Positions 1 to 31,627 are shown, counted from the stretch's first letter. The stretch is 43,329 nt of DNA from an uncultured Patescibacteria group bacterium (GCA_937921305.1 CAKZSU010000007.1:1-43329); one strand, 5' to 3'. Numbers and translations are program-made. Notes: a model not told the origin generated them from the sequence alone.

Positions 1-226
1 AAGGTATAATATAGAGAGGTCGAAAAATTATCAACGAATCTTCTCTTTGAAACATTCGTTTTTTATACAATAATAATTTTCTTAATGTAATTCCCTCATT
101 TAGGAGAAATGCTATGACAGTATTATATCTTGATAAAAATAAAGCAGTTTGTTTTTCGTCATCAGCCATCCAATCATATGGCATTCCAAAAGGAATAAGA
201 ATAATCTTATTTTTCAGGAATTTCAT
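1..226 (-). CDS. Hypothetical protein, N-terminal part only (gene runs off the left window edge)
   Basis: ATG at 226-224 opens a minus-strand frame (MKFLKNKIILIPFGMPYDWMADDEKQTALFLSRYNTVIAFLLNEG...). I translated it by hand and found no stop for 75 codons to position 2. It is missing from the supplied track only because it is open-ended. It diverges from the glycosyltransferase genes. The N-terminus is faintly reminiscent of GT1-type exopolysaccharide transferases, but that is weak. Confidence 0.3.
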   Translation of the reverse strand, partial: MKFLKNKIILIPFGMPYDWMADDEKQTALFLSRYNTVIAFLLNEGITLRKLLLYKKRMFQREDSLIIFRPLYIIP

Positions 227-249
227 AACTTCTAAAATAATATAAAAAC

Positions 250-1479
250 ATGAATATTCTTTTTATTACTGATGATATTACATCAACTGGCGGTGCAATC
301 ACATTTGTTCAAGAAATTGCAAAAGAATTTTCTAAAAAACATAATGTTTACATTATCGCAGGAAATCTAAGTTCATCAATAAAAAATACTTCATTAAATA
401 AAAAAATACAAATTTTCTTTTATAAATCGAAAAAAATTCCATTTATAGAATTAGACATTGGTGCTCTTATCTATCTACCAAAGATTTTTGATCAGGTTGT
501 AAAAAAGATTCGTCCTGATGTTATTTATCTACATCTTTATTCTTCTCCTTTTTCCATTTTTCTACTTCGTCGAAATATTAAAGTCCCCATATATCTATAT
601 GTGTATGGCATATGGCATAAAGAAACATTATCTTCGATATCAAAACCAAAAAAACATAAATATCTTGGGAAAATAAAGCGATTAATAAAATATGGAAATA
701 AAATTGTTCAACAATATCTTATACAATTTTTTTGTGTTGTGACGACAAAATACATCATTACATTAAGTGACTATGCAAAAGAGATATTGATTAAAGCATA
801 TCCGATTAACAAATCAAAAGTATATACAATTCCTGGTGGATATGATCCGAAAATTTTTTATCCCGTATCAAAAACAAAAAAAATATCTTTACGAAAAAAT
901 CTGGGTTTTTCTGAAAATAGCAATATACTTCTCATTGCGACTCGCATAGAAAGAAGAAAAAATATTCATGTAGGAATACAAGCTTTACCATACATTATAA
1001 AGGAACATAAACACACAATGCTCCTTATTATCTTTCCGTTTACCGCTCATTCATACTTTGACTATCTTTTAGAATGCATCGCATTGGTTGAAAAACTTTC
1101 TTTAGGAAAGCATATTAGATTTATTGTTGGCATAAAACATGAAGAAATAGCTCAGTATTATCAAATAGCCGACTGTTTTCTCATGCTTTCTGAAGATTAT
1201 GAAACATTTGGATTAACAACAATCGAATCTCTTGCGTGTGGAATTCCTGTCTTTGGAATGTCATCAAGTAATACAAAAGATTTATTAAAAATAATAGATC
1301 CGTTTTTCCTTTTTGAAAAAAATAAACCAGAAATCATCTCTAAACATATTTCTAGATATTTTTCTCTTTCGGATAAAAAAAAACATCATCTATCTAAGAA
1401 GTGCTCTCGTTTTGCATCGACATTCATATGGGAGAGGGTTTGCAAGCTGCTTATAGATATGCAATTGAAAAATATATGA
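250..1479 (+). CDS. Glycosyltransferase, family 4 (GT-B fold)
   Basis: 409-aa ORF with an ATG start. C-terminal E-x7-E signature EDYETFGLTTIESLACGIPVFG. The N-terminal MNILFITDD...GGA pattern is typical of GT4. Confidence 0.85.
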   Translation: MNILFITDDITSTGGAITFVQEIAKEFSKKHNVYIIAGNLSSSIKNTSLNKKIQIFFYKSKKIPFIELDIGALIYLPKIFDQVVKKIRPDVIYLHLYSSPFSIFLLRRNIKVPIYLYVYGIWHKETLSSISKPKKHKYLGKIKRLIKYGNKIVQQYLIQFFCVVTTKYIITLSDYAKEILIKAYPINKSKVYTIPGGYDPKIFYPVSKTKKISLRKNLGFSENSNILLIATRIERRKNIHVGIQALPYIIKEHKHTMLLIIFPFTAHSYFDYLLECIALVEKLSLGKHIRFIVGIKHEEIAQYYQIADCFLMLSEDYETFGLTTIESLACGIPVFGMSSSNTKDLLKIIDPFFLFEKNKPEIISKHISRYFSLSDKKKHHLSKKCSRFASTFIWERVCKLLIDMQLKNI

Positions 1480-2615
1480 AAAAAACAGTTCTTTTTCTTT
1501 TAGACAAGTACGAATATAGTGGCGTAACAACGCTAACAAAACAATACATAGAATTGCTACAAGATCAATATAACTGTATTATCCTTGGATTCATAAATGA
1601 CATTGATGATCCTGATTCATTTTTTCCAAAAGCAAAAGTATTTATCATCAAAAAAGAATTTAAGCGAGGACTAATCGGGAAAGCTATAAATTCTATTCGA
1701 TATATTATTGCAATTAATACTATATACCAAAAACACAAAATTGATATCGTTCATTTCTCCACAACATTGTCAGGTATTTCTGCATTTTTTCATTGTGCGA
1801 CATGGAAAAAAAAGAAAATTGCAACATTTCATGGAGCACATGATCTTGAAGAAATAAGCATACATGGAACGGGAGTAATAAAAAACATTAAAAATGTGAT
1901 AAGAAAAAAACTTCAACAATTTATTCTTAAACGCTCCACGGTAATCGTACTAAGTGAATATGCATATAAACTCATTCGATCTCATTATTCATTTTATAAA
2001 AAACAAAACATATTCATAATTCCCCCATATATAAAAATGAAAAATCAAATAAAAAAAATTAAAAAATCAAATGAATTTATCATTGTTAATTTTGGTCGAG
2101 CAGAACCAAGAAAAGGAATACATACACTTTTAGAAGCAATAAAAAACTTAAGAAGAAGATATACGATAAAAACATACATAGCAACTCCAATTTCGTATTG
2201 GCATATGGGCATCATTAAAACTTATGAAGCCTTAAACTTATATACCTCTGTTCATATACTTCACAAAATAAATGATGCACAAAAACAAGATCTTTTACGC
2301 AAAGCTCATCTTTTTGTCATGCCTTCAAAAGATCTTGAAACATTTGGCATTTCAATGCTTGAAAGTTTATCAACAGGAACCCCTGTTGTAGGAACACCTT
2401 CAGGGGCAATTCTTGAAATCCTATCAAAAATAGATCGAAGATTGATAGCAAAAGAAATATCATCAGTCTCTTTAGCAAATACTATAGCATGGTATATAAA
2501 TCTTTCATTTAAAGAAAAAAAGAAAATACGAAATAAATGCCTTTCATATGTTGAAACATATCATGCTAAAAAGACAATAAAAAAATACTTTCTTCAGGTA
2601 TACAAATATTGTTAA
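1476..2615 (+). CDS. Glycosyltransferase, family 4 (GT-B fold)
   Basis: The track ORF starts at a GTG at 1401, inside the upstream gene. I prefer the ATG at 1476 (MKKTVLFLLDK...), which forms an ATGA start/stop overlap with the upstream stop at 1477-1479. E-x7-E motif KDLETFGISMLESLSTGTPVVG. Confidence 0.85.
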   Translation: MKKTVLFLLDKYEYSGVTTLTKQYIELLQDQYNCIILGFINDIDDPDSFFPKAKVFIIKKEFKRGLIGKAINSIRYIIAINTIYQKHKIDIVHFSTTLSGISAFFHCATWKKKKIATFHGAHDLEEISIHGTGVIKNIKNVIRKKLQQFILKRSTVIVLSEYAYKLIRSHYSFYKKQNIFIIPPYIKMKNQIKKIKKSNEFIIVNFGRAEPRKGIHTLLEAIKNLRRRYTIKTYIATPISYWHMGIIKTYEALNLYTSVHILHKINDAQKQDLLRKAHLFVMPSKDLETFGISMLESLSTGTPVVGTPSGAILEILSKIDRRLIAKEISSVSLANTIAWYINLSFKEKKKIRNKCLSYVETYHAKKTIKKYFLQVYKYC

Positions 2616-2625
2616 GAATAAATAA

Positions 2626-3561
2626 TTACTTTTTCATCTTAAGAAAAACTTCATATAAATTATAGCCGACTATAAATAGTAAAATCTGAAAAATTTGAAC
2701 TAATCTTGCAGGTATATCTTGAAAATGAAATATACAATAAAGGGCATCTTTTAAATTGTTTTTATTCCAATCCCATGAAGAAAATGGAATATTTTGTTGA
2801 TATAAAATTTTCTCTACAAGCTTATTTTCGATCCCCGTTTGAATAAATCGTTTCACCAAATATAAGATAGAAAATCTTATATTATTTATTCTATGATTTA
2901 CCACAATTGATCCAATGTATATAAATACATGCCCTCTGTAAAGGAGTCGAAGGCAAAACTCTAGATCTTCTGCCCCTAAGAAAAATTTCCCATATCTTCT
3001 TCCAAGCATAGTATTAAACATTTCTTTACCTAATTTATTTCTTCGTAAGCATATACATGCGCTAAAAATAAGATCTGGATATCTCAATTGTTCTATATCA
3101 TTCTTTCGTTCAGTAAGAGCAAAAACCCATGAAAGATGCTTGAAAAATAATTTATAGTATCTTAATCTATTTTCCATAAAATCTCCAACAATCTTTCCTC
3201 CTATTGCAGTTGCTTCTGGAAAATTTATTAAAGCAGAAGAAAATTTGATTAAAATCTCTCTCTCTACAGAGATATCATCATCAATGAAGAGTATGTGATT
3301 ATATCTTGACTTTTTTATTCCCGTATTTCTCACAAAAGAAATCCCTTCTTTTTCTTCTTTTATAAGAGAAAAATGTCTATTTCGTTTCAAAAAACGTTGA
3401 ACAACTTGATCTGTACGGTCTGCGCTATTATTATTGACGATAATAACTTCCCATTTCCCTTGATAGGTTATAGACTCTATTCTTCTTAATGTTTCTTCTA
3501 AGTTATCAGCCCTATTTCTTGTTGGTATTATGATCGAAAAACTTGGAAGATTTTTCTTCAT
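2626..3561 (-). CDS. Glycosyltransferase, family 2 (GT-A fold)
   Basis: FSIIIPTRNRADNLEETLRRI N-terminal GT2 signature and DxD-like FIDDDI. The track start at 3618 is a TTG, so I prefer the internal ATG at 3561 (MKKNLPSFSIIIP). The start is uncertain. Confidence 0.8.
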   Translation of the reverse strand: MKKNLPSFSIIIPTRNRADNLEETLRRIESITYQGKWEVIIVNNNSADRTDQVVQRFLKRNRHFSLIKEEKEGISFVRNTGIKKSRYNHILFIDDDISVEREILIKFSSALINFPEATAIGGKIVGDFMENRLRYYKLFFKHLSWVFALTERKNDIEQLRYPDLIFSACICLRRNKLGKEMFNTMLGRRYGKFFLGAEDLEFCLRLLYRGHVFIYIGSIVVNHRINNIRFSILYLVKRFIQTGIENKLVEKILYQQNIPFSSWDWNKNNLKDALYCIFHFQDIPARLVQIFQILLFIVGYNLYEVFLKMKK

Positions 3562-3751
3562 TTTGAAAAAATAATTTCTCTTATTACAAAAGATTCCTAT
3601 GTTTCTATTCTTTAACAATTCTTTTATTCATTTTTTAAAAATATGTATTACATATAAAAATATGCAATACAGTAAGGAAAATATAAACAATCTAAAGATA
3701 TAATCGTGCCAATTTATCTATTAAATTACTAATAACTATAATTCAATTTAT

Positions 3752-4438
3752 TTATAATATAATCTCTCCCTCTCTCATCTCTAACACTCTTTTGCAATGT
3801 TTTTTTATATATTCTCTCCACTGGCTTACCATAAGAATCGTTTTTTCTTGATGAAAAAATGTTTTGATTTTTTTGAAAGATTTCTCCCTAAACTGTTCAT
3901 CGCCTACCGCCATATGTTCATCGAGAAGAAGAATATCTGGATCAGCATGAACAGCTATAGAAAATCCAAGGCGAAGCTTCATACCCTGAGAATACGTAAA
4001 AAGCGGCGTGTCAATAAATTGTTTAATATCTGCAAATTCAATAATACTTTGTATTTTTTCATCAATATCTCTCTTATTCATGCCAAGAAGAAGTCCACTG
4101 ATATAAATATTTTGATATCCTGTCAATTCAACATTAAATCCAGCTTCTAAATCTAGAATCGAAATAACTCTACCATATACGCTAACTATTCCTGATGTTG
4201 GTGTAGTAATTCCAGCAATAATTTTTAATAGCGTTGTTTTTCCGCTTCCATTGTGACCAATAATCCCAATAATTTCTCCTTTGTATATTGTCAGATTGAT
4301 ATGCTTTAACGCCCAAAATGTCTCATTCCTTCCTTTGAAAAATTTTTCCACAAGCGTTGGCTTTTCGTGATGAATCTCATATGACTTGCTGACATCTATG
4401 AGTTGAATCGCTATGTCTGAATTCTGTTTCTTCCTCAT
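3752..4438 (-). CDS. Polysaccharide/teichoic-acid type ABC exporter, ATP-binding subunit (Wzt/TagH-like, no C-terminal glycan-binding domain)
   Basis: Walker A GHNGSGKTTLLK, signature-like YSQGMKLRL and Walker B ILLLDE. It lies 3 nt downstream of an ABC-2 permease on the same strand. Confidence 0.85.
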   Translation of the reverse strand: MRKKQNSDIAIQLIDVSKSYEIHHEKPTLVEKFFKGRNETFWALKHINLTIYKGEIIGIIGHNGSGKTTLLKIIAGITTPTSGIVSVYGRVISILDLEAGFNVELTGYQNIYISGLLLGMNKRDIDEKIQSIIEFADIKQFIDTPLFTYSQGMKLRLGFSIAVHADPDILLLDEHMAVGDEQFREKSFKKIKTFFHQEKTILMVSQWREYIKKHCKRVLEMREGEIIL

Positions 4439-4441
4439 ATA

Positions 4442-5227
4442 TTACAACCAATCGTCGAAATGTTTGCTTTCTCTTAAGAAAGTTGCTACTCCTAAAAAAA
4501 CCCCAAACGCGATCGTCAAAAGGTTTGCCGTAAGCATCGCTGGTCCAGGAGCAGCGGAATGAATCAATCCATTCTGAAGCAATTGAATCGGCGATGTCAA
4601 AGGATTAAACCTCCAGAGCCAGAGCAATTCTCGCGGAATCAAATGAAGTGAATAAATAATTGGTGTTGCATAAAACCAAACAATAAGAATCGCTTGAACA
4701 AAAAAGTTCACATCGCGAAACCGCACATTTAATGCGGAGGAAAACAAGCTCACTCCTGAGGTAAAAATAAGCAATAAAAATAATGCAAAGACACTCACGA
4801 TAATTCCCGAAAATGAAAACGTTCCTATCGCAAAAACCGCGATCAAAAAAAGTCCAAATGAAATAAGCAAATGAACAAAATTGGATAAGACAATCGACAA
4901 AGGAATCACTACTCGAGGGAAAGACGCTTTTTTAATAAGATTTCGTTCAAATACAATCGATGACGTTGCTTTTGTCAAAGATAATGAAAAAAAATTCCAC
5001 GCAAGCAATCCAATAAATAAATGATGAAAGTAATACGGAATAGGCTCGCGGACAAAAAATCGGAATATAAATCCAATAACAAGCATCTGAAGGATAGGAT
5101 TAAGAATCATCCATAAAAACCCAAACATCGTATTCTTATATCGAGCAAGCAATTCTTTTTTTGTCATTTCATATAAAAGTTCGACAAAATGTTGAAATCG
5201 CTCGCGTTTCGTTTTCATGTGCCTCAT
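4442..5227 (-). CDS. ABC-2 type exporter permease (Wzm/TagG-like)
   Basis: 261 aa, about 6 hydrophobic helices and an N-terminal ...ELLARYKNTMFGFLWMILNP... motif typical of ABC-2 polysaccharide export permeases. Adjacent to the ATPase. Confidence 0.8.
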   Translation of the reverse strand: MRHMKTKRERFQHFVELLYEMTKKELLARYKNTMFGFLWMILNPILQMLVIGFIFRFFVREPIPYYFHHLFIGLLAWNFFSLSLTKATSSIVFERNLIKKASFPRVVIPLSIVLSNFVHLLISFGLFLIAVFAIGTFSFSGIIVSVFALFLLLIFTSGVSLFSSALNVRFRDVNFFVQAILIVWFYATPIIYSLHLIPRELLWLWRFNPLTSPIQLLQNGLIHSAAPGPAMLTANLLTIAFGVFLGVATFLRESKHFDDWL

Positions 5228-25185: not shown

Positions 25186-27384
25186 ATGAGAAAGAAAAAA
25201 AGAAGAGCGAAGCACGCATTCCGTATCATGCTTCGTATTTGCCGACACATCATAAAGAAGACATATAAAAAGGTAAGAATTCGCCTTTCAATGATGCATC
25301 TTTTTCTTCATATTCGCCTAAAACGCGCGATTCAAGCAACGAAAAGAAAAAACGATGAAAAAAAACAGAGATTAAAGAAGTACAGAATTATACGCATACT
25401 CTTTTATCTCTTCCTAGGAAGCATAGGAATAATTCTTTGCGCGATTGTGCCGATAAGTATGTACATCATTATTTCAGGCCTCCCTCATCCCAATCTTTTG
25501 AAACATCGTCATATTCCAAAAACAACAAAACTATTTGATCGCAATGGCATTCTGTTATATGAAATTTTCGATGAAGAAAACAGAACACCTATTCCTCTCA
25601 CAGAAATTCCGGATACTATAAAAAACGCGGTAATCGCTATTGAAGATAAGGATTTTTTTATCCATAACGGCTTTTCGCTCTCCGGGATTATACGAGCGAC
25701 GAGAGAAACCATATTAAAAAAACAACTCCAAGGCGGCTCAACAATCACGCAACAGCTTGTCAAATCAACGCTTCTTACGCCGGAGATAACTCTTGAGAGA
25801 AAAATCAAAGAACTTATCCTCGCCTATTGGACAGAACGATTGTACACAAAAGAACAGATTCTTGAGATGTACCTCAATGAGGTTTCCTTCGGCGGAACCG
25901 CATGGGGGATTGAATCAGCAAGTCAAACATATTTTGGAAAATCTGTCAAAGACCTCACGCTTGCCGAAACGGCATTTCTTGCCGGTCTTCCTCAATCACC
26001 TTCGCTCTACAGTCCATTTTCAGGAAATAAAGAAAAAGCGATAGAACGACAACATAATGTCCTTCGTCGAATGGTTGAAGATGGATATATCACTGAAGAA
26101 CAAGCGCAAGAAGCGAAACAGCAACCGCTGATATTCGTGCAACCAAAGATATCGATCCAAGCACCACATTTTGTATGGTATGTCAAAGATTACCTTGAAC
26201 GACGGTATGGAAAAACTCTTGTGGAACGAGGGGGGTTACGAGTTGTAACAACGCTTGATTTGCCACTTCAACAACAGATTGAATCCATTGTCGCTAACAA
26301 TATTAAAATACTTGCAAATCTTCAAGTAACAAACGGCGCGACGCTCGTAACCAATCCAAAGACCGGCGAAATTCTTGCGATGGTGGGAAGCAACAATTAC
26401 TTTGACACACAGAATGATGGCAATGTCAATGTTACAACTTCTTTAAGACAACCGGGATCAAGCATCAAAGTTGTTACCTACGCAAAAGCGATTGAAGATA
26501 AAAAAATTACTGCGGCAACAATTTTTGAAGATCTTCCCGTCTCATACGATCTTCCCGATCAACCGCCATATAAACCTGTGAATTACGACGGACGATTTCA
26601 TGGACTAGTTCCAACGCGTCTCGCGCTGGGAAATTCCTACAACATCCCCGCGGTGCGAGTACTTCACATGATTGGCATTGACGCAATGATTGCGCAAGGA
26701 GAGCAAATGGGCATTGACACATGGAAAGAACGCAATCGCTTCGGACTCTCGTTAACGCTTGGAGGAGGAGAAGTGACCATGATTGATATGGCAGAAGTAT
26801 ATGGAACGCTCGCGAATCTTGGAACGCGCGTGGATCTTATCCCGATACAATCAATTGAAAATTGTAAAGGAACACCTCTCTCTATACAGCAACCATCTCC
26901 TGTGCAAGCGCTCTCTCCTGAAACAGCATGGATCATTACAAACATTTTGAGCGATAATTGGGCAAGAACACAAGCGTTTGGACCAAACTCGAAACTTGTC
27001 ATACCCGGAAAAACCGTTGCGGTCAAAACAGGAACAACCGATCAAAAACGAGACAACTGGACAATTGGATACACGCCATCATATGTTGTCGCCGTATGGG
27101 TCGGTAATAATGATAATAAACCAATGCATCCCTATCTTACATCAGGAATCACTGGATCGGCGCCGATTTGGCATGAAATCATGAAAACACTTCTCGAAGA
27201 AAGACCTGATGAAATACAACTAAAACCAGATCGCGTTATTGCCATTCCATGTTACGGCAACCGCGTTGAATATTTCATTCAAGGAACTGAACCGAGACAC
27301 TGGTGCGGATTTTCTCCTACCCCAACACAGAAACAAAAAAATCAGCAGTTCAATATAACCAGTCAAGATAAAAGAGAAGATTAA
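25186..27384 (+). CDS. Bifunctional class A penicillin-binding protein (PBP1A), copy 2, with about 65-aa highly basic cytoplasmic tail
   Basis: EDKDFFIHNG, GGSTITQQ, SSIK, SYN and KTGT. It is collinear with copy 1 and shares blocks such as LRRMVED.YIT.E, ERGGLRV.TTLDLPLQ and RFGLSLTLGGGEV. Confidence 0.92.
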   Translation: MRKKKRRAKHAFRIMLRICRHIIKKTYKKVRIRLSMMHLFLHIRLKRAIQATKRKNDEKKQRLKKYRIIRILFYLFLGSIGIILCAIVPISMYIIISGLPHPNLLKHRHIPKTTKLFDRNGILLYEIFDEENRTPIPLTEIPDTIKNAVIAIEDKDFFIHNGFSLSGIIRATRETILKKQLQGGSTITQQLVKSTLLTPEITLERKIKELILAYWTERLYTKEQILEMYLNEVSFGGTAWGIESASQTYFGKSVKDLTLAETAFLAGLPQSPSLYSPFSGNKEKAIERQHNVLRRMVEDGYITEEQAQEAKQQPLIFVQPKISIQAPHFVWYVKDYLERRYGKTLVERGGLRVVTTLDLPLQQQIESIVANNIKILANLQVTNGATLVTNPKTGEILAMVGSNNYFDTQNDGNVNVTTSLRQPGSSIKVVTYAKAIEDKKITAATIFEDLPVSYDLPDQPPYKPVNYDGRFHGLVPTRLALGNSYNIPAVRVLHMIGIDAMIAQGEQMGIDTWKERNRFGLSLTLGGGEVTMIDMAEVYGTLANLGTRVDLIPIQSIENCKGTPLSIQQPSPVQALSPETAWIITNILSDNWARTQAFGPNSKLVIPGKTVAVKTGTTDQKRDNWTIGYTPSYVVAVWVGNNDNKPMHPYLTSGITGSAPIWHEIMKTLLEERPDEIQLKPDRVIAIPCYGNRVEYFIQGTEPRHWCGFSPTPTQKQKNQQFNITSQDKRED

Positions 27385-28004
27385 TTTGTGACAAAAATTC
27401 TCATTGTGTGTTGAGAAACACCGGAATTGAAAATTTCCCATTCTCCAGACGAAACGAAACGATATTCGAACACGCCTCCTGAACCAATGGCCTGCCCCAT
27501 GTCGATATCTCCTTGCTTACTTTTTATCCACATTTGTTGACGGCTTGTATTAACAAATGCAACCATTGTTCCGGATTTCACTGAAAGCGTCTCGGGAGAA
27601 AATCCGGAGTCTGTGTACACAATCGTATTTCCTCCGTGAACAACTTGCTGCTGAGTGGGAGTCGGCATCCGCGTTGGTTGCGGTGTTGAAACAGGTTGTC
27701 CTCCTTTTGTTTGATCAGGTTGTGATGAAGTCGGCGCTGGAGATAGAGTAACCCCTGTAGGATTTGGTTGATTGGCGATAATTACCATGGTTGGTTGCGG
27801 GGTAATAGTTGGCGCTCTGCCTAGTAATCGTTCATCAATGAGTTGTCGAAGCGACCTTCCTATTTCTGGAGTGGGTGTAGAAGTCACCTCTTGCTGTTGA
27901 TTATTCACGACACGTCTTGGTTGACTTCTATTTACGATACCCCACGATAGAAGCGCGGCGATGGTTACTATAGCTAAAATAGAAAAAATTGCGAGATTCT
28001 TCAT
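27381..28004 (-). CDS. Membrane-anchored protein with Pro/Thr/Gln-rich linker and C-terminal cupredoxin-like beta domain lacking copper ligands
   Basis: TM anchor MKNLAIFSILAIVTIAALLSWGIV, then a PT/Q-rich linker. The C-terminal TIVYTDSGFSPETLSVKSGTMVAFVNTS...GVFEYRFVSSGEWEIFN...HTMRIFV follows the cupredoxin strand pattern but has no Cys. The start is ambiguous: the ATG at 28004 is preferred, while the track start at 28052 makes a TAATG overlap with the ykuK-like stop. Confidence 0.6.
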   Translation of the reverse strand: MKNLAIFSILAIVTIAALLSWGIVNRSQPRRVVNNQQQEVTSTPTPEIGRSLRQLIDERLLGRAPTITPQPTMVIIANQPNPTGVTLSPAPTSSQPDQTKGGQPVSTPQPTRMPTPTQQQVVHGGNTIVYTDSGFSPETLSVKSGTMVAFVNTSRQQMWIKSKQGDIDMGQAIGSGGVFEYRFVSSGEWEIFNSGVSQHTMRIFVTN

Positions 28005-28051
28005 AATATGGTATATAACGCGGGACAGGAACGCGATTGAAGGCAGGAACA

Positions 28052-28540
28052 TTATGTATGTCTATCGGCGACTTTACTTGCGCCGTAGCTGTTTGGTTTT
28101 GTTTTAACGATATATCCCGACCCGCGAATCATTCCAACAATTTCTGCGATCATGTCTTTTGTTTCGCCGGACGGACCGATATCAACATGTATTTCTACAT
28201 TATACTTCGTTATCCCGTCTTTTTCAAATAAATTGAGAATTGTTTCGGCAGTTTCAAGAGAATATATTGCTTCCTCATACATCCGTTGACGAAGCGCGTA
28301 TCGTTGGTGTTTTACAACCCGTCTCCAAAAGTAAATACCGCCTTTCCCTTTTTTATGAACAACAATTGCCGTAACAAAGTCAACCCCACCTGATTCTTTT
28401 ACTTGAGAGTCTGTTCCAACAACCAACCGGTATGCTTGATCCTCGTCAAACGAAACAAAGGACTTAATTCTCTCAGACAACTCATCAAGCGTCACAAGAC
28501 CATACGTTGGACTATGGAAGACAATCTCATTCTTTTTCAT
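28052..28540 (-). CDS. YkuK/DUF458 family RNase-H-like protein
   Basis: 162 aa. LVVGTDSQ...VTAIVVHKKGKGGIYFW...IHVDIG.SG.TKDMI...GASKVADRHT matches my memory of the Bacillus YkuK family layout. The start overlaps the cyclase stop by 14 nt. Confidence 0.7.
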   Translation of the reverse strand: MKKNEIVFHSPTYGLVTLDELSERIKSFVSFDEDQAYRLVVGTDSQVKESGGVDFVTAIVVHKKGKGGIYFWRRVVKHQRYALRQRMYEEAIYSLETAETILNLFEKDGITKYNVEIHVDIGPSGETKDMIAEIVGMIRGSGYIVKTKPNSYGASKVADRHT

Positions 28541-29219
28541 AGAAAACCGATCGGATGCTTTGGATCCACTCGTATCCCCATATCACCAACCAAAGAAGCG
28601 AAAATCCATAAAAGAGATCTTCGATCGGCATGGAAAAAATTCTGATGCCGCTCATATACGCAGAATCGTAGATAACAATAGGCCTTGCGGTAAGGTACCC
28701 ATTAAATATCACCGTCAAACCAATCACTATACCAGTAAATATCATCGCGACAGACGATATGTATCCTTTTCGAAAAAGGAAAAAGAATGACAATAAGAAC
28801 CCACAGAGAATAAACACAGAAAATAAATACCACAAACGATTCACATACGCATACACTCCGACAATAAAGAAAAGCAACACACTTCCATATCTCGCGACCA
28901 ATGGGACAAGAAAAATTTTTCGAGGAAAGTGATGCTTCGCGTTCACCCATAAGACAAGACATCCCCACGGCACCGTGAAGAAAAATAATATTTCTTCGAT
29001 AGGAAGCGGTCCAATGATTATTCCTAATGTATATAAAGGATTAAAACTCCACCATATATCTGTAACCAACGCGTCCCAAAAGATATACACGAACGCCACT
29101 GGAATAATCGACGCTAATGCTGAAAAAATATGAGGGAATTTTCCTCCTTTATATACCAATGGTCCAAGAAGAGAGCTTCCAAGAATAAGGCAATTAAATA
29201 GCAAATATTCGCTGTTCAT
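28527..29219 (-). CDS. crtY: Lycopene cyclase, fused two-repeat CrtYc/CrtYd-type (lycopene cyclase domain x2)
   Basis: 230 aa and about 7 TM helices, with two internal repeats. Each repeat carries the diagnostic P-x-E-E/D motif (PLPIEEILFFFTVPW and SMPIEDLFYGFSL). ATGA overlap with the upstream crtI-crtB stop. Confidence 0.75.
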   Translation of the reverse strand: MNSEYLLFNCLILGSSLLGPLVYKGGKFPHIFSALASIIPVAFVYIFWDALVTDIWWSFNPLYTLGIIIGPLPIEEILFFFTVPWGCLVLWVNAKHHFPRKIFLVPLVARYGSVLLFFIVGVYAYVNRLWYLFSVFILCGFLLSFFFLFRKGYISSVAMIFTGIVIGLTVIFNGYLTARPIVIYDSAYMSGIRIFSMPIEDLFYGFSLLWLVIWGYEWIQSIRSVFYEKE

Positions 29220-31477
29220 GTAATGAATTGTCGCAACACCTCTGCGATAACGCGAATCTTTGGAGGTTTAACTTTTTTCTTCCAAACAATCATTGGATCA
29301 GCATAGATAGCATCTGCGGTTTTTTCATACAGCTCTGCAGCTGCTTGAATCGGCGGTCTATATTGCTTTGGAATATACGAAAACCCTTTTTCAGCTTGAC
29401 GCTGAATTCGTTTATACGCCTTGATATGCGCTCGAATAAACGAGCCCCATTGTTTTGGATCTCGCCTAATCTCTTCGGTGTATCCTAAATAATTTCTTCC
29501 AAGGCCTTCATCTTCCGCAACATCGCGAATAAAATTGACATATTGCATGGCTTTTCCTTGGAGTCTAGCGGTTTCATTCGCCGATTCTGGAAGATCAAGA
29601 ATTCTTGCCATCATCAACCCGACTACTTCAGCCGAGCCATACATATACGATTCTAATTCTGAAAATTTCATGTACGATCGTTTCGTGAGATCACCTCTCA
29701 TCGATGTCCAAAATGCTTCAATCCATTTCCAATCAAATTGTTTTCGCTTCGCAAGAGAAATAAATTCTCGAACAGTTTGATGCTCTGTTGCTCCATTTTT
29801 CCAACACAACCGAGTCTCTTTCCACAACGATTCAAATGCGTCGGTATCAGGCGTTGGACAATCAATCAGATCGTCAACAGTACGAACATACGCGTACAAT
29901 GCAAACACATCTTCTTTTACTTGTCCTCGGAAGAATATGCTTGAATAATAATACGTCACGCTTCCTCGCTGAAAAATCCCTTGTTTGTCAGATGTCGGAG
30001 CGCCGATTTGATCAGCGACGAGCTTCGCGGAAATAAGCGTCATAGGAACTCCAACGCCCGGTTGAACATATTGACCGGCGTAATACAATCCATAAATCTT
30101 TGCGCTTTTATTCCGCGGACGAAACCATAACGATTGTGTCCATGTATGCGCAAGCCCCAACGCTGTTCCGCCATACGCATGGTAGCGATCATGAAACTGA
30201 TCTGGTCTAAACAATTCCTTAACACAAATATACCCAGAAAACGATTCTCCGGAAAACGACTCTATTTTTTCAATCACCGCATCAGCCAATGCGGCAAGCT
30301 CCGACGAGGCGTAATCACCACGAGCTCCAAGAGGAATAAGAAGAAATAATTCATCGGCCTCTTTTGGAACAATTGATCGATCGGTAACAGAACGAGCGGA
30401 AACATAAAACGACGGATCGGAAGGAATGGATCGCGCGTCAAAAATATCTGAAAAATTTTTCTTCCAATCAGAAGAAAAATACAAAGTGTGGTGAACAAAA
30501 TGTTTCAACCTTTTCTGAATACCAAGATAGACAAGAAGCGCCGATATGCCAATCATCTTTTTTCTCCACCATTGTTCATCCCATGACTGATAGTCTTTTG
30601 GGAGCAACTGTGTTTCGAGATGATGAAGATCGCAAGCACCAACAACAACAGAAGCATCATAGACACGATCACCCACCCTCACTCCAGATACTCGTCCGTC
30701 TTTAACACGAATATGTTGCACATCTTCACCCGTATGAATCTCAACTCCAAACAATCGCGCAAGTTGTTCTAACGCGGAAATAACCATCCCAATCCCTCCT
30801 TTTGGATACCAAACACCTTGACCAAAATCCGCCCACGACAAAATACTATAAAACGATGGGGTTGCATATGGCGATCCACCTAAAAACACAGACGGAAATG
30901 TGAGAATTTTTGCCAGACGATCATCGCGAAAGTATGCATATGCTTCATCATGCCAACTTTTCAATGAAAACACGCGGAGAAATGTTTGAATATCTTTGAT
31001 ATTTTTTACATCGAAAAAAAATTTCCATGAAAAAATATCTTGCCAAATCAAACGAACAACCGATTCGTACGCCAGCCGTTTTTGCTCCAAATACGCAATA
31101 AGTTTTTTTCCTGATCCGGGAAGGATGGCATCAAACACTTCTTGATTCTGCTCAAGAGAATCATTCAATGTAACTACACTACCATCATGAAAATACACCC
31201 GATATCGAGGTTCTAAACGAATAAGATCGTAATAGTCTGATGACGACTTACCAAACAGTTGAAAGAATGATTCAAACACTTCCGGCATAAGATACCACGA
31301 CGGTCCCATGTCAAAAGAAAAACCATCTTTCTTTAACACAGCAGCTCGACCGCCTAACACTGGTTGTTTTTCAAACAATCGCACCCGCCATCCTCTTGAG
31401 GCAAGAAGAGTTGCTGTCGCAAGTCCCGAGACTCCACCTCCGATCACAACAACATCAGAAGACACATGATTTGCCAT
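29216..31477 (-). CDS. Fusion protein: phytoene desaturase (CrtI family, aa 1 to about 490) + phytoene synthase (CrtB/SQS_PSY, aa about 505-753)
   Basis: N-terminal FAD fold VVVIGGGVSGLATATLLASRG...LGGRA and the CrtI-type DMGPSWYLMPEVFESFF. The CrtI C-terminal region is YYAGQYVQPGVGVPMTLISAKLVA. A short linker QIGAPTSDKQG (about 29965-30005) follows. Then come the synthase motifs YYYSSIFF, YAYVRTVDDLID (first Asp-rich), MYGSAEVVGLMM and YVNFIRDVAEDEGLGRNYL (second Asp-rich). It is one uninterrupted 753-codon frame. Confidence 0.8.
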   Translation of the reverse strand: MANHVSSDVVVIGGGVSGLATATLLASRGWRVRLFEKQPVLGGRAAVLKKDGFSFDMGPSWYLMPEVFESFFQLFGKSSSDYYDLIRLEPRYRVYFHDGSVVTLNDSLEQNQEVFDAILPGSGKKLIAYLEQKRLAYESVVRLIWQDIFSWKFFFDVKNIKDIQTFLRVFSLKSWHDEAYAYFRDDRLAKILTFPSVFLGGSPYATPSFYSILSWADFGQGVWYPKGGIGMVISALEQLARLFGVEIHTGEDVQHIRVKDGRVSGVRVGDRVYDASVVVGACDLHHLETQLLPKDYQSWDEQWWRKKMIGISALLVYLGIQKRLKHFVHHTLYFSSDWKKNFSDIFDARSIPSDPSFYVSARSVTDRSIVPKEADELFLLIPLGARGDYASSELAALADAVIEKIESFSGESFSGYICVKELFRPDQFHDRYHAYGGTALGLAHTWTQSLWFRPRNKSAKIYGLYYAGQYVQPGVGVPMTLISAKLVADQIGAPTSDKQGIFQRGSVTYYYSSIFFRGQVKEDVFALYAYVRTVDDLIDCPTPDTDAFESLWKETRLCWKNGATEHQTVREFISLAKRKQFDWKWIEAFWTSMRGDLTKRSYMKFSELESYMYGSAEVVGLMMARILDLPESANETARLQGKAMQYVNFIRDVAEDEGLGRNYLGYTEEIRRDPKQWGSFIRAHIKAYKRIQRQAEKGFSYIPKQYRPPIQAAAELYEKTADAIYADPMIVWKKKVKPPKIRVIAEVLRQFIT

Positions 31478-31483
31478 ATGGTA

Positions 31484-31492
31484 CTTATATCA
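31484..31492 (-). promoter_or_regulatory. Extended -10 element TGATATAAG, 6 nt upstream of the crtI-crtB ATG (leaderless candidate)
   Basis: The minus strand reads TGATATAAG-TACCAT-ATG. There is no SD and no obvious -35, which is consistent with an extended -10 promoter. Confidence 0.4.
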
Positions 31493-31554
31493 CAAGAGAA
31501 TAAACCGCTTCCATTGCAAGAACGCAATTAAAGACCTCTTAGTTTAGATTGTAA

Positions 31555-31585
31555 ATATCCCACGAAATAAATTCTCGTGGGATAT
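31555..31585 (-). terminator. Intrinsic terminator-like hairpin downstream of the RRM gene
   Basis: Perfect 11-bp stem ATATCCCACGA/TCGTGGGATAT with a 9-nt loop, 43 nt past the rrm stop. Only a short T-tract follows on the minus strand. Confidence 0.55.
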
Positions 31586-31627
31586 GATTGAACATCAAAA
31601 AAATATTTTTTAGATAATTGTTTCGCT

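Follow-up and report, generated by a model that had tools for sequence, protein, structure and literature searches.

In this study, the carotenoid genes in a 43,329-nucleotide (nt) stretch of DNA from an uncultured Patescibacteria group bacterium (GCA_937921305.1 CAKZSU010000007.1:1-43329; hereafter, the window) were investigated using profile, motif, syntenic and selection analyses. A preliminary description of the window had proposed a translationally coupled cluster of four genes, in which a fused phytoene desaturase-phytoene synthase gene (crtIB) and a lycopene cyclase gene were accompanied by two unexplained partners. Our analysis indicates that the functional unit is probably smaller, namely, a two-gene cyclic-carotene cassette composed of crtIB and crtY(c/d) in Candidatus Gottesmanbacteria, a lineage of the candidate phyla radiation (CPR), and that it was probably inserted at this site. 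Both enzymes retain their diagnostic motifs, both genes are maintained by selection, and the two genes are absent from the same site in three relatives that keep the surrounding genes in order.

Gene content and junctions of the locus

The features of the locus are as follows:
29216-31477, minus strand: crtIB, 753 amino acids (aa), with an N-terminal CrtI domain (about aa 1-495) and a C-terminal CrtB/SQS_PSY domain (about aa 500-753)
28527-29219, minus strand: crtY(c/d), a fused two-repeat membrane lycopene cyclase of 230 aa (PF18916 and TIGR03462)
28052-28540, minus strand: DUF458/YkuK RNase H-like gene, 162 aa (PF04308)
27381-28052, minus strand: membrane-anchored, weakly cupredoxin-like protein of 223 aa (Cupredoxin_1 match below the cutoff)
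31478-31627, minus strand: intergenic region upstream of crtIB, with a hairpin and a putative extended -10 element, read from the sequence

The four minus-strand open reading frames (ORFs) of the preliminary description were recovered with exactly the same coordinates, and its three overlaps were all read in the sequence. The TGA of crtIB lies over the ATG of the cyclase gene in a shared ATGA (4-nt overlap), the cyclase stop codon is located 14 nt within the DUF458 ORF, and the DUF458 TAA meets the ATG of the cupredoxin-like gene in TAATG (1-nt overlap). The last junction requires the long start of the cupredoxin-like ORF; an alternative internal start (MKNLAIF, at 28004) leaves a 48-nt gap after DUF458 instead and provides a more signal-anchor-like N-terminus. 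This chain of starts and stops indicates co-transcription and not a common pathway, because overlaps are common in the window (9 of 27 same-strand neighbour pairs) and also link unrelated genes, such as ComM-UPF0102 and PP2C-superoxide dismutase (SOD). The cupredoxin-like gene (minus strand) and a PBP1A gene (plus strand) are convergent, and their stop codons overlap by 4 nt (27381-27384). The coding density of the window is 0.94, and tRNA and Rfam searches returned no match in it.

The CrtI-CrtB fusion and the lycopene cyclase

The N-terminal domain of the fusion matched the CrtI family model TIGR02734 with 454 bits (cutoff 238; residues 9-497) and the Pfam profile Amino_oxidase with 123 bits. 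The C-terminal domain matched SQS_PSY (PF00494) with 136 bits (cutoff 26) over positions 2-262 of the 263 in the model, and a variable linker of about 10 aa joins the two domains. In a sequence search against the PDB, the fusion matched the CrtI entry 4DGK (6e-58, residues 10-488), 4REP (1e-55) and 5IYS (2e-9), the solved structure of Pantoea CrtI (4DGK) being matched end to end by the CrtI domain. The GxGxxG Rossmann motif that binds flavin adenine dinucleotide (FAD) is present at the CrtI N-terminus (VVVIGGGVSGLATA), and G13, G15 and G18 are invariant in 21 fused homologues. The two Asp-rich motifs of the synthase domain (DDLID, 535-539; DVAED, 652-656) are invariant in the same homologues, including residues D536, D539, D652, E655 and D656.

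The cyclase matched Lycopene_cyc (PF18916) in two stretches with 91 bits and TIGR03462 with 70 bits (cutoff 39). The motifs LP(I/V)EE of repeat 1 (here LPIEE) and IPxED-type of repeat 2 (here MPIED) are invariant in 11 aligned cyclases. The protein contains multiple hydrophobic segments, as a small polytopic membrane protein, and is only 29-43% identical to the cyclases of other loci. The preliminary calls of a crtI-crtB fusion and of a fused two-repeat lycopene cyclase were thus borne out by profiles above the cutoff, PDB matches of the fusion and intact motifs in both proteins.

Probable insertion site, putative promoter and junction remodelling

The borders of the unit are defined by relatives that are free of crt genes. 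Locus L091 carries genes for a CTP-transferase, VanW, a solute-binding protein, an unknown protein, GroES, GroEL, a DUF1749 hydrolase, an RRM protein, DUF458, a 227-aa cupredoxin-like homologue, PBP1A, PBP1A and SOD, which is the order of the window without the crt genes between RRM and DUF458 and with one extra unannotated ORF before SOD. Its proteins are 93% (GroEL), 85% (RRM), 73% (DUF458), 37% (cupredoxin-like) and 63-74% (PBP1As) identical to those of the window. The same RRM-DUF458-cupredoxin-like-PBP1A core, again without crt genes, was found in the more distant relatives L092 and L093. The crt unit is a two-gene indel between the RRM gene and the DUF458-cupredoxin-like-PBP1A block. Placement of the cassette by insertion appears most likely, rather than repeated loss in the relatives, because the cassette lies in unrelated contexts elsewhere and three relatives are cassette-free at the site.

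Upstream of crtIB, a hairpin after the RRM gene (ATATCCCACGA...TCGTGGGATAT) is followed by TGaTATAAG and, after 6 nt, by the ATG; a Shine-Dalgarno sequence is lacking. The hairpin and the stretch TGTGATATAA-N-TACCAT-ATG are conserved in a sister species (L094). These features suggest that the element in region 31478-31520 is a putative extended -10 promoter that produces a leaderless mRNA. A comparable arrangement, TGnTACGAT plus 6 nt plus ATG after the RRM terminator hairpin, precedes DUF458 in L091 (7975-8003) and L093 (7985-8003); in L092, the ATG TTC start of DUF458 is kept and the TGnTACGAT element was not seen. As a separate observation, TGnTA..A. recurs exactly 6 nt before an ATG, after a terminator hairpin and without a Shine-Dalgarno sequence, in the window (31478-31520), L091 and L093, and this lineage of Gottesmanbacteria may commonly use leaderless mRNAs.

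The DUF458 gene begins with the codons ATG TTC CAT in L091 and L093, against GTC TTC CAT at the corresponding place in the window. The ancestral ATG reads GTC here, and therefore translation must begin 18 nt farther upstream, within the 3' end of the cyclase gene, giving the 14-nt overlap. The DUF458 junction is thus a settled, evolved one. In the proposed course of events, the cassette would have entered between the RRM gene and the ykuK(DUF458)-cupredoxin-like-PBP1A backbone block and would be transcribed from the extended -10, leaderless-type promoter; the downstream backbone genes would then have become translationally coupled, DUF458 gaining its new upstream start.

Distribution of the fused cassette

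At 50% identity, the fused clade is reduced to a single representative (P0016) in the representative library. The named close homologues of the fusion belong to Gottesmanbacteria, Pacebacteria and 'Patescibacteria group', and its public records read 'hypothetical protein' in Gottesmanbacteria RBG_16_52_11 (a 2016-era genome) and 'phytoene desaturase' in a metagenome-assembled genome (MAG) of Pacebacteria. The cyclase gene lies directly downstream of the fusion in the sister species L094 and, in unrelated contexts, in L005, L007 and L011. In RBG_16_52_11 (L004), which with L005, L007 and L011 makes up four other genomes from public assemblies, the neighbourhood of the fusion is likewise unrelated; a cupin gene follows it, and no recognisable cyclase was found.

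When genome contigs were scanned with the fusion alignment, L011 was the only member of the fused clade among the matches listed, and the species of the window was not among them. The corresponding scan of metagenome contigs returned nothing above 44% identity among the matches listed, and a single-protein metagenome scan gave no match; the distribution of the fused clade is under-sampled by these scans. Genes in the order crtI-crtB(-crtY) were also observed in MAGs labelled 'uncultured Pseudomonadales' or 'Gammaproteobacteria', namely, L011 (CAZBTU010000032.1), L045 (CAYOFQ010000001.1), L010, L016 and L031. L011 (51%) and L045 (47%) are the closest to the window cassette among the genome-scan matches listed, and L010, L016 and L031 are 39-43% identical to the window fusion, like archaeal and spirochaete loci. 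These TPA assemblies may be mislabelled as Pseudomonadales and Gammaproteobacteria; alternatively, a wider spread of the cassette may be under way.

Other fusion families, comprising I-B proteins (29-32% identity), B-I proteins of 814 aa and long I-B-(Y)(-BCD) proteins (31-33%), are all distinct from the window family, and the CrtI-CrtB fusion probably arose several times. The reverse-order B-I fusion, with CrtB at the N-terminus and CrtI at the C-terminus, was observed in P0055 and about 25 similar ENA proteins of about 815 aa, on contigs of up to 1 Mb; none was met in the literature, in which no search was aimed at B-I fusions.

Predicted function, selection and substrate supply

Relative to the sister species L094, the ratio of nonsynonymous to synonymous substitution rates (dN/dS) was 0.12 for crtIB and 0.16 for the cyclase gene, compared with 0.09 for DUF458 as a housekeeping neighbour. 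The cassette is under purifying selection and is maintained, given these low ratios in both of its genes. By homology, the CrtB domain would convert two molecules of geranylgeranyl diphosphate (GGPP) to phytoene, and the fused FAD-dependent CrtI domain would convert phytoene to lycopene. O2 would be the likely electron acceptor because CPR bacteria are generally held to be without respiratory quinones. The membrane cyclase would then close the ends of lycopene to give gamma- or beta-carotene. The most plausible role of such a pigment in the membrane would be that of a photo-oxidative protectant or a membrane-ordering lipid. Fe/Mn SOD is a conserved neighbour of the locus, and an oxygen-exposed lifestyle that fits this gene is plausible.

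Genes for a polyprenyl synthase, BCD/blh and a rhodopsin were all missing from the window plus 10 kb on each side (63 kb of the 207-kb contig), which upholds and extends the absence of GGPP synthase, blh/brp and rhodopsin noted previously for the window. GGPP would be supplied by a prenyl synthase encoded elsewhere, and the C5 units are perhaps not made by the lineage. Of the isoprenoid route, freshwater Microgenomatia are reported to carry the C10-C20 elongation module alone, the C5 pathway being absent (PMC9166423). The carotene pathway is unlikely to be autonomous because no GGPP synthase is located nearby and freshwater Microgenomatia are reported to be without a C5 pathway, and the term 'autonomous' applied to the module in the preliminary description is thus unsupported.

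Several points weigh against an inserted C40 carotene cassette of Gottesmanbacteria. The synthase domain is below all CrtB equivalog models (43-71 bits against cutoffs of 480-550), its best NCBIfam match is HpnD (88 bits, cutoff 279), and the best desaturase equivalog model, 'CrtID' phytoene/3,4-desaturase, reached 526 bits against a cutoff of 640. The 63 kb contain no GGPP synthase gene. No flanking direct or inverted repeats or mobility genes were found at the cassette ends, and loss in the relatives is the alternative to insertion. The hosts of the fused clade are mostly without named taxonomy, and the L011 MAG bears the label 'Pseudomonadales'. Because the synthase domain passes the broad SQS_PSY model alone, its GGPP specificity is inferred from the CrtI-type partner and the cyclase context; chain length and the number of desaturation steps are likewise predicted from the CrtI-type partner, the coupled cyclase and the nearest relatives. 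The nearest CrtI relatives belong to Thermoplasmatota, Microbacteriaceae, Spirochaetes and Saccharibacteria, among others, and a C40/C50-type CrtI subfamily ('ABA' or 'CrtIb') has been placed in taxa that overlap with Thermoplasmatota, Microbacteriaceae and others (PMC10016063, PMC9907078).

A different destination for the product, in which beta-carotene from the cassette is the retinal precursor for a rhodopsin encoded elsewhere in the genome, is unlikely. The only published natural CrtIB fusion lies in Verrucomicrobiota proteorhodopsin/retinal operons (PMC10284914), eukaryote-like I-B-(Y)-BCD fusions exist, and rhodopsins are present in some CPR classes (PMC9166423, PMC9296517); however, PF15461 and PF01036 were found neither in the 63 kb nor, in precomputed Pfam annotation, up to 10 kb from the L004, L005 and L007 fusions, beside which no polyprenyl synthase gene was seen either. 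Consequently, blh and a rhodopsin gene beside crt genes, the mark of a retinal/rhodopsin photosystem operon, were seen at none of these loci. Near the L011 cassette, crtE, blh and rhodopsin genes were absent among the ORFs scanned, which are only some of those present, and a BCD probe from P0397 had no tblastn match in any locus, a weak negative given the divergence of the probe. Moreover, a survey of freshwater CPR gives rhodopsin counts for Saccharimonadia, Dojkabacteria, ABY1, Gracilibacteria and Paceibacteria, describes the remainder as 'less in other classes' and does not name Microgenomatia (PMC9166423). Rhodopsin-bearing Saccharibacteria have been reported without blh (PMC9296517).

That the fusion yields a C30 product derived from farnesyl diphosphate (FPP), or a squalene-type product, in place of a C40 carotene is very unlikely. 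HpnD is the best equivalog-type match of the synthase domain, albeit far below its cutoff, the PDB match to 5IYS is weak, and a cell that makes peptidoglycan must already have FPP. By contrast, the desaturase is a full-length member of the CrtI family well above the cutoff, no CrtN-type model is among its 25 best NCBIfam matches, its nearest relatives occur in taxa of the C40/C50-type CrtI subfamily (PMC9907078), and a lycopene-type cyclase is translationally coupled to the fusion. A C40 cyclic carotene is the product that these features favour.

The DUF458 and cupredoxin-like genes

The YkuK/DUF458 assignment of the preliminary description was confirmed by PF04308 (now 'RNaseH_like'), which matched the 162-aa protein with 163 bits. 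Relatives of this protein at 60-74% identity form more than 120 clusters, the named ones being Gottesmanbacteria, 'Patescibacteria group' or unclassified 'bacterium'. The cupredoxin-like protein kept its predicted membrane anchor and a weak likeness to its family, and lost the expected metal site: Cupredoxin_1 scored 18.9 bits (cutoff 27), and one N-terminal hydrophobic segment is followed by a Pro/Thr/Gln-rich linker and a C-terminal all-beta domain. Cys is absent from the protein, which is also without the HPTH and HNH motifs kept by its L092 and L093 homologues; no metal ligands remain, and the His/Cys/His/Met set of type 1 copper cupredoxins is missing. Relative to the homologues of L092 (8596-9090) and L093 (8527-9406), the proteins of the window and L091 show a deleted HPTHQLLP loop and a change of HNH to FNS, which suggests that the metal site was lost in the sub-lineage of these two. 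L093 has an additional neighbouring paralogue with a precomputed Cupredoxin_1 match. A PDB sequence search returned no match for either the DUF458 or the cupredoxin-like protein, and a single-sequence AlphaFold model of the cupredoxin-like domain (pLDDT 48.7) was set aside as unusable. The cupredoxin-like protein was considered as a redox partner of CrtI, which is unsupported by a protein without Cys that has lost HPTH and HNH.

It is highly improbable that all four genes form one carotenoid module with DUF458 and the cupredoxin-like protein as accessory factors, for example, CrtI redox partners or proteins for carotenoid handling. The overlap chain, the one common upstream promoter region and the arrangement kept in the sister species are in line with such a module; however, overlaps link unrelated gene pairs of the window as well, the two genes occupy the same place and order in relatives without crt, the cupredoxin-like domain lacks Cys and the His motifs of its homologues, and neither gene was found within 8-10 kb at any of 165 other crtI-bearing loci, including other fused-cassette loci. 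Both are resident backbone genes and not carotenoid partners, because they stand at the same place in the crt-free relatives L091, L092 and L093; the two 'unexplained partner genes' of the preliminary description are thus explained as neighbours of the two-gene cassette.

The best sigma-70-like match of the region, TTGAAA-17-TATAAT (11 of 12 positions; 28199-28227, minus strand), is located inside DUF458, roughly 150 nt upstream of the ORF for the cupredoxin-like protein. Either an internal promoter of this gene or chance could account for the match, with 16 sites found against 12.4 expected.

Host lineage and integrity of the locus

The named best matches of GroEL (82-85% identity) are Candidatus Gottesmanbacteria, including RBG_16_52_11, and two generic 'Patescibacteria group' labels. 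Assignment of the host to Candidatus Gottesmanbacteria (CPR, Microgenomates) holds on GroEL affinity and on synteny with named members, in agreement with the CPR-like lineage proposed earlier. The reduced-genome neighbourhood was also as described: it includes purine-salvage and aldehyde dehydrogenase genes, a pair of PBP1A genes, and genes for VanW and a solute-binding protein.

An identical copy of the fusion protein, together with both of its flanks, is present in three assemblies from different runs, one of them represented by the 207-kb ENA contig ERZ6864144 c_000000296671, and the sister species L094, at 89% nt identity, has the same crtIB-cyclase-DUF458 order. The 27-32 kb segment, for which a composition check had been recommended, is typical of the contig (tetranucleotide correlation of 0.947 with the rest of the window; GC content of 0.417). 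An assembly or binning chimera, or a very recent foreign insertion, is a generic risk of metagenomic contigs for which there is no direct evidence, and it is largely refuted and scarcely credible given the junctions shared by three assemblies and the sister species, the fitting composition and the DUF458 start codon remodelled to suit the junction.

The sole compositional outlier is a low-GC island at window positions 1-5000 and in the upstream flank (L089 1-10000), with a GC content of 0.26-0.30 against about 0.43 and a tetranucleotide correlation of 0.81. It encodes GT4 and GT2 glycosyltransferases and an ABC-2 exporter and, beyond the window, Wzy_C, Polysacc_synt, a radical-SAM/SPASM protein and an asparagine-synthase-like gene, and resembles a cluster for O-antigen or cell-surface polysaccharide that may have been acquired horizontally. 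Past the window end (43329) and downstream of valS, the region L090 12730-20035 contains type I restriction-modification fragments (Methylase_S, N6_Mtase and HSDR_N_2), a Fic/RhuM protein, a helix-turn-helix gene and a truncated serine-recombinase fragment, and looks like a decayed defence or mobile island.

Implications

The usual picture of CPR bacteria is that of fermentative episymbionts in which lipid and isoprenoid biosynthesis is almost absent. A maintained cyclic-carotene pathway with a probably O2-using CrtI would imply that at least some Gottesmanbacteria are exposed to light or oxygen and invest in membrane chemistry, and it makes the source of their GGPP a question of interest. The locus would also illustrate how an inserted cassette captures a leaderless promoter and forces the downstream gene to a new, coupled start. 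As a minimal carotene pathway of two genes, one for a fused synthase-desaturase and one for a fused cyclase, it is of possible use in pathway engineering.

A wider and unlikely proposal is that crtIB and crtY travel horizontally as a compact 'beta-carotene cassette', restricted for the most part to CPR, by which lipid and isoprenoid auxotrophs turn host prenyl units into pigment and which may feed an unlinked retinal/rhodopsin system in some lineages. If true, a cassette feeding a rhodopsin system would overturn the view that CPR bacteria must import retinal.

Previous work already documents the enzymes, this kind of fusion and the occurrence of carotenoid genes in Patescibacteria, and the advance is incremental. 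The surprise expressed in the preliminary description was accordingly too great: the fusion was already present in RBG_16_52_11 and a Pacebacteria MAG, carotenoid clusters exist in Saccharibacteria and Dojkabacteria, and such genes have been published for Patescibacteria (PMC9948471). What is new is a minimal, functional-looking, cyclase-bearing carotene cassette in a lineage in which it had not been discussed; in the literature searched, no paper joins Gottesmanbacteria or Microgenomates with carotenoids.

Comparison with known systems

The natural CrtIB fusion was first reported in 2023 from Verrucomicrobiota, in operons of Ca. Pelagisphaera phototrophica PR-1 (PMC10284914). Like that protein, the window fusion carries the desaturase at the N-terminus and the synthase at the C-terminus of one polypeptide, with a lycopene cyclase gene next to it. 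Unlike the Verrucomicrobiota crtE-crtIB-crtY-blh and proteorhodopsin operon, the window locus is without crtE, blh and rhodopsin in 63 kb. The window family forms a separate cluster at 50% identity, and the other I-B families are 29-32% identical to it; these values suggest that the I-B fusion families are independent fusion events.

The order I, B, Yc/d and the fused CrtYc/d cyclase are shared with the eukaryotic CrtIBY of thraustochytrids and Thecamonas (PMC5924542, PMC10016063), whereas in the window the cyclase is encoded by an ORF of its own that shares ATGA with crtIB. At 1222-1449 aa, the long I-B-(Y)(-BCD) proteins show 31-33% identity to the window fusion and lie farther from it than many unfused prokaryotic CrtI do. 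The window clade was considered as the prokaryotic donor of eukaryotic CrtIBY on account of the same domain order, and this origin was rejected at the 31-33% identity of the long I-B-(Y) proteins. The cyclase resembles the CrtYc/CrtYd lycopene beta-cyclases of Actinobacteria, Halobacteria and fungi (TIGR03462/PF18916) in its tandem Lycopene_cyc repeats with a PxE(E/D) motif in each; its ring type and substrate are predicted by homology.

Within CPR, bacterioruberin-type carotenoid genes were published in 2023 for Baikal Patescibacteria (PMC9948471). The lyeJ-crtD-cruF genes of Saccharibacteria and Baikalibacteria and the CPR MAG loci resemble the window cassette in combining a CrtI-family desaturase with a phytoene synthase in the order I, B. 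Among the loci retrieved here, crtI, crtB, a polyprenyl synthase gene and UbiA in Saccharibacteria or Patescibacteria MAGs, or CruF (PF04240) by crtI in a Dojkabacteria locus, were observed in L034 (9995-14209), L039 (9986-14162), L048 (552-3987), L053 (8895-13742) and L015 (9360-11482), and these Saccharibacteria and Dojkabacteria clusters match the published bacterioruberin-type genes (PMC9948471). The other CPR clusters are unfused and have, besides a polyprenyl synthase of their own, either a UbiA-type elongase or CruF, a gene set indicative of acyclic C45/C50 products. In contrast, the Gottesmanbacteria cassette does without crtE, UbiA and CruF, and its desaturase and synthase are fused and joined by a cyclase.

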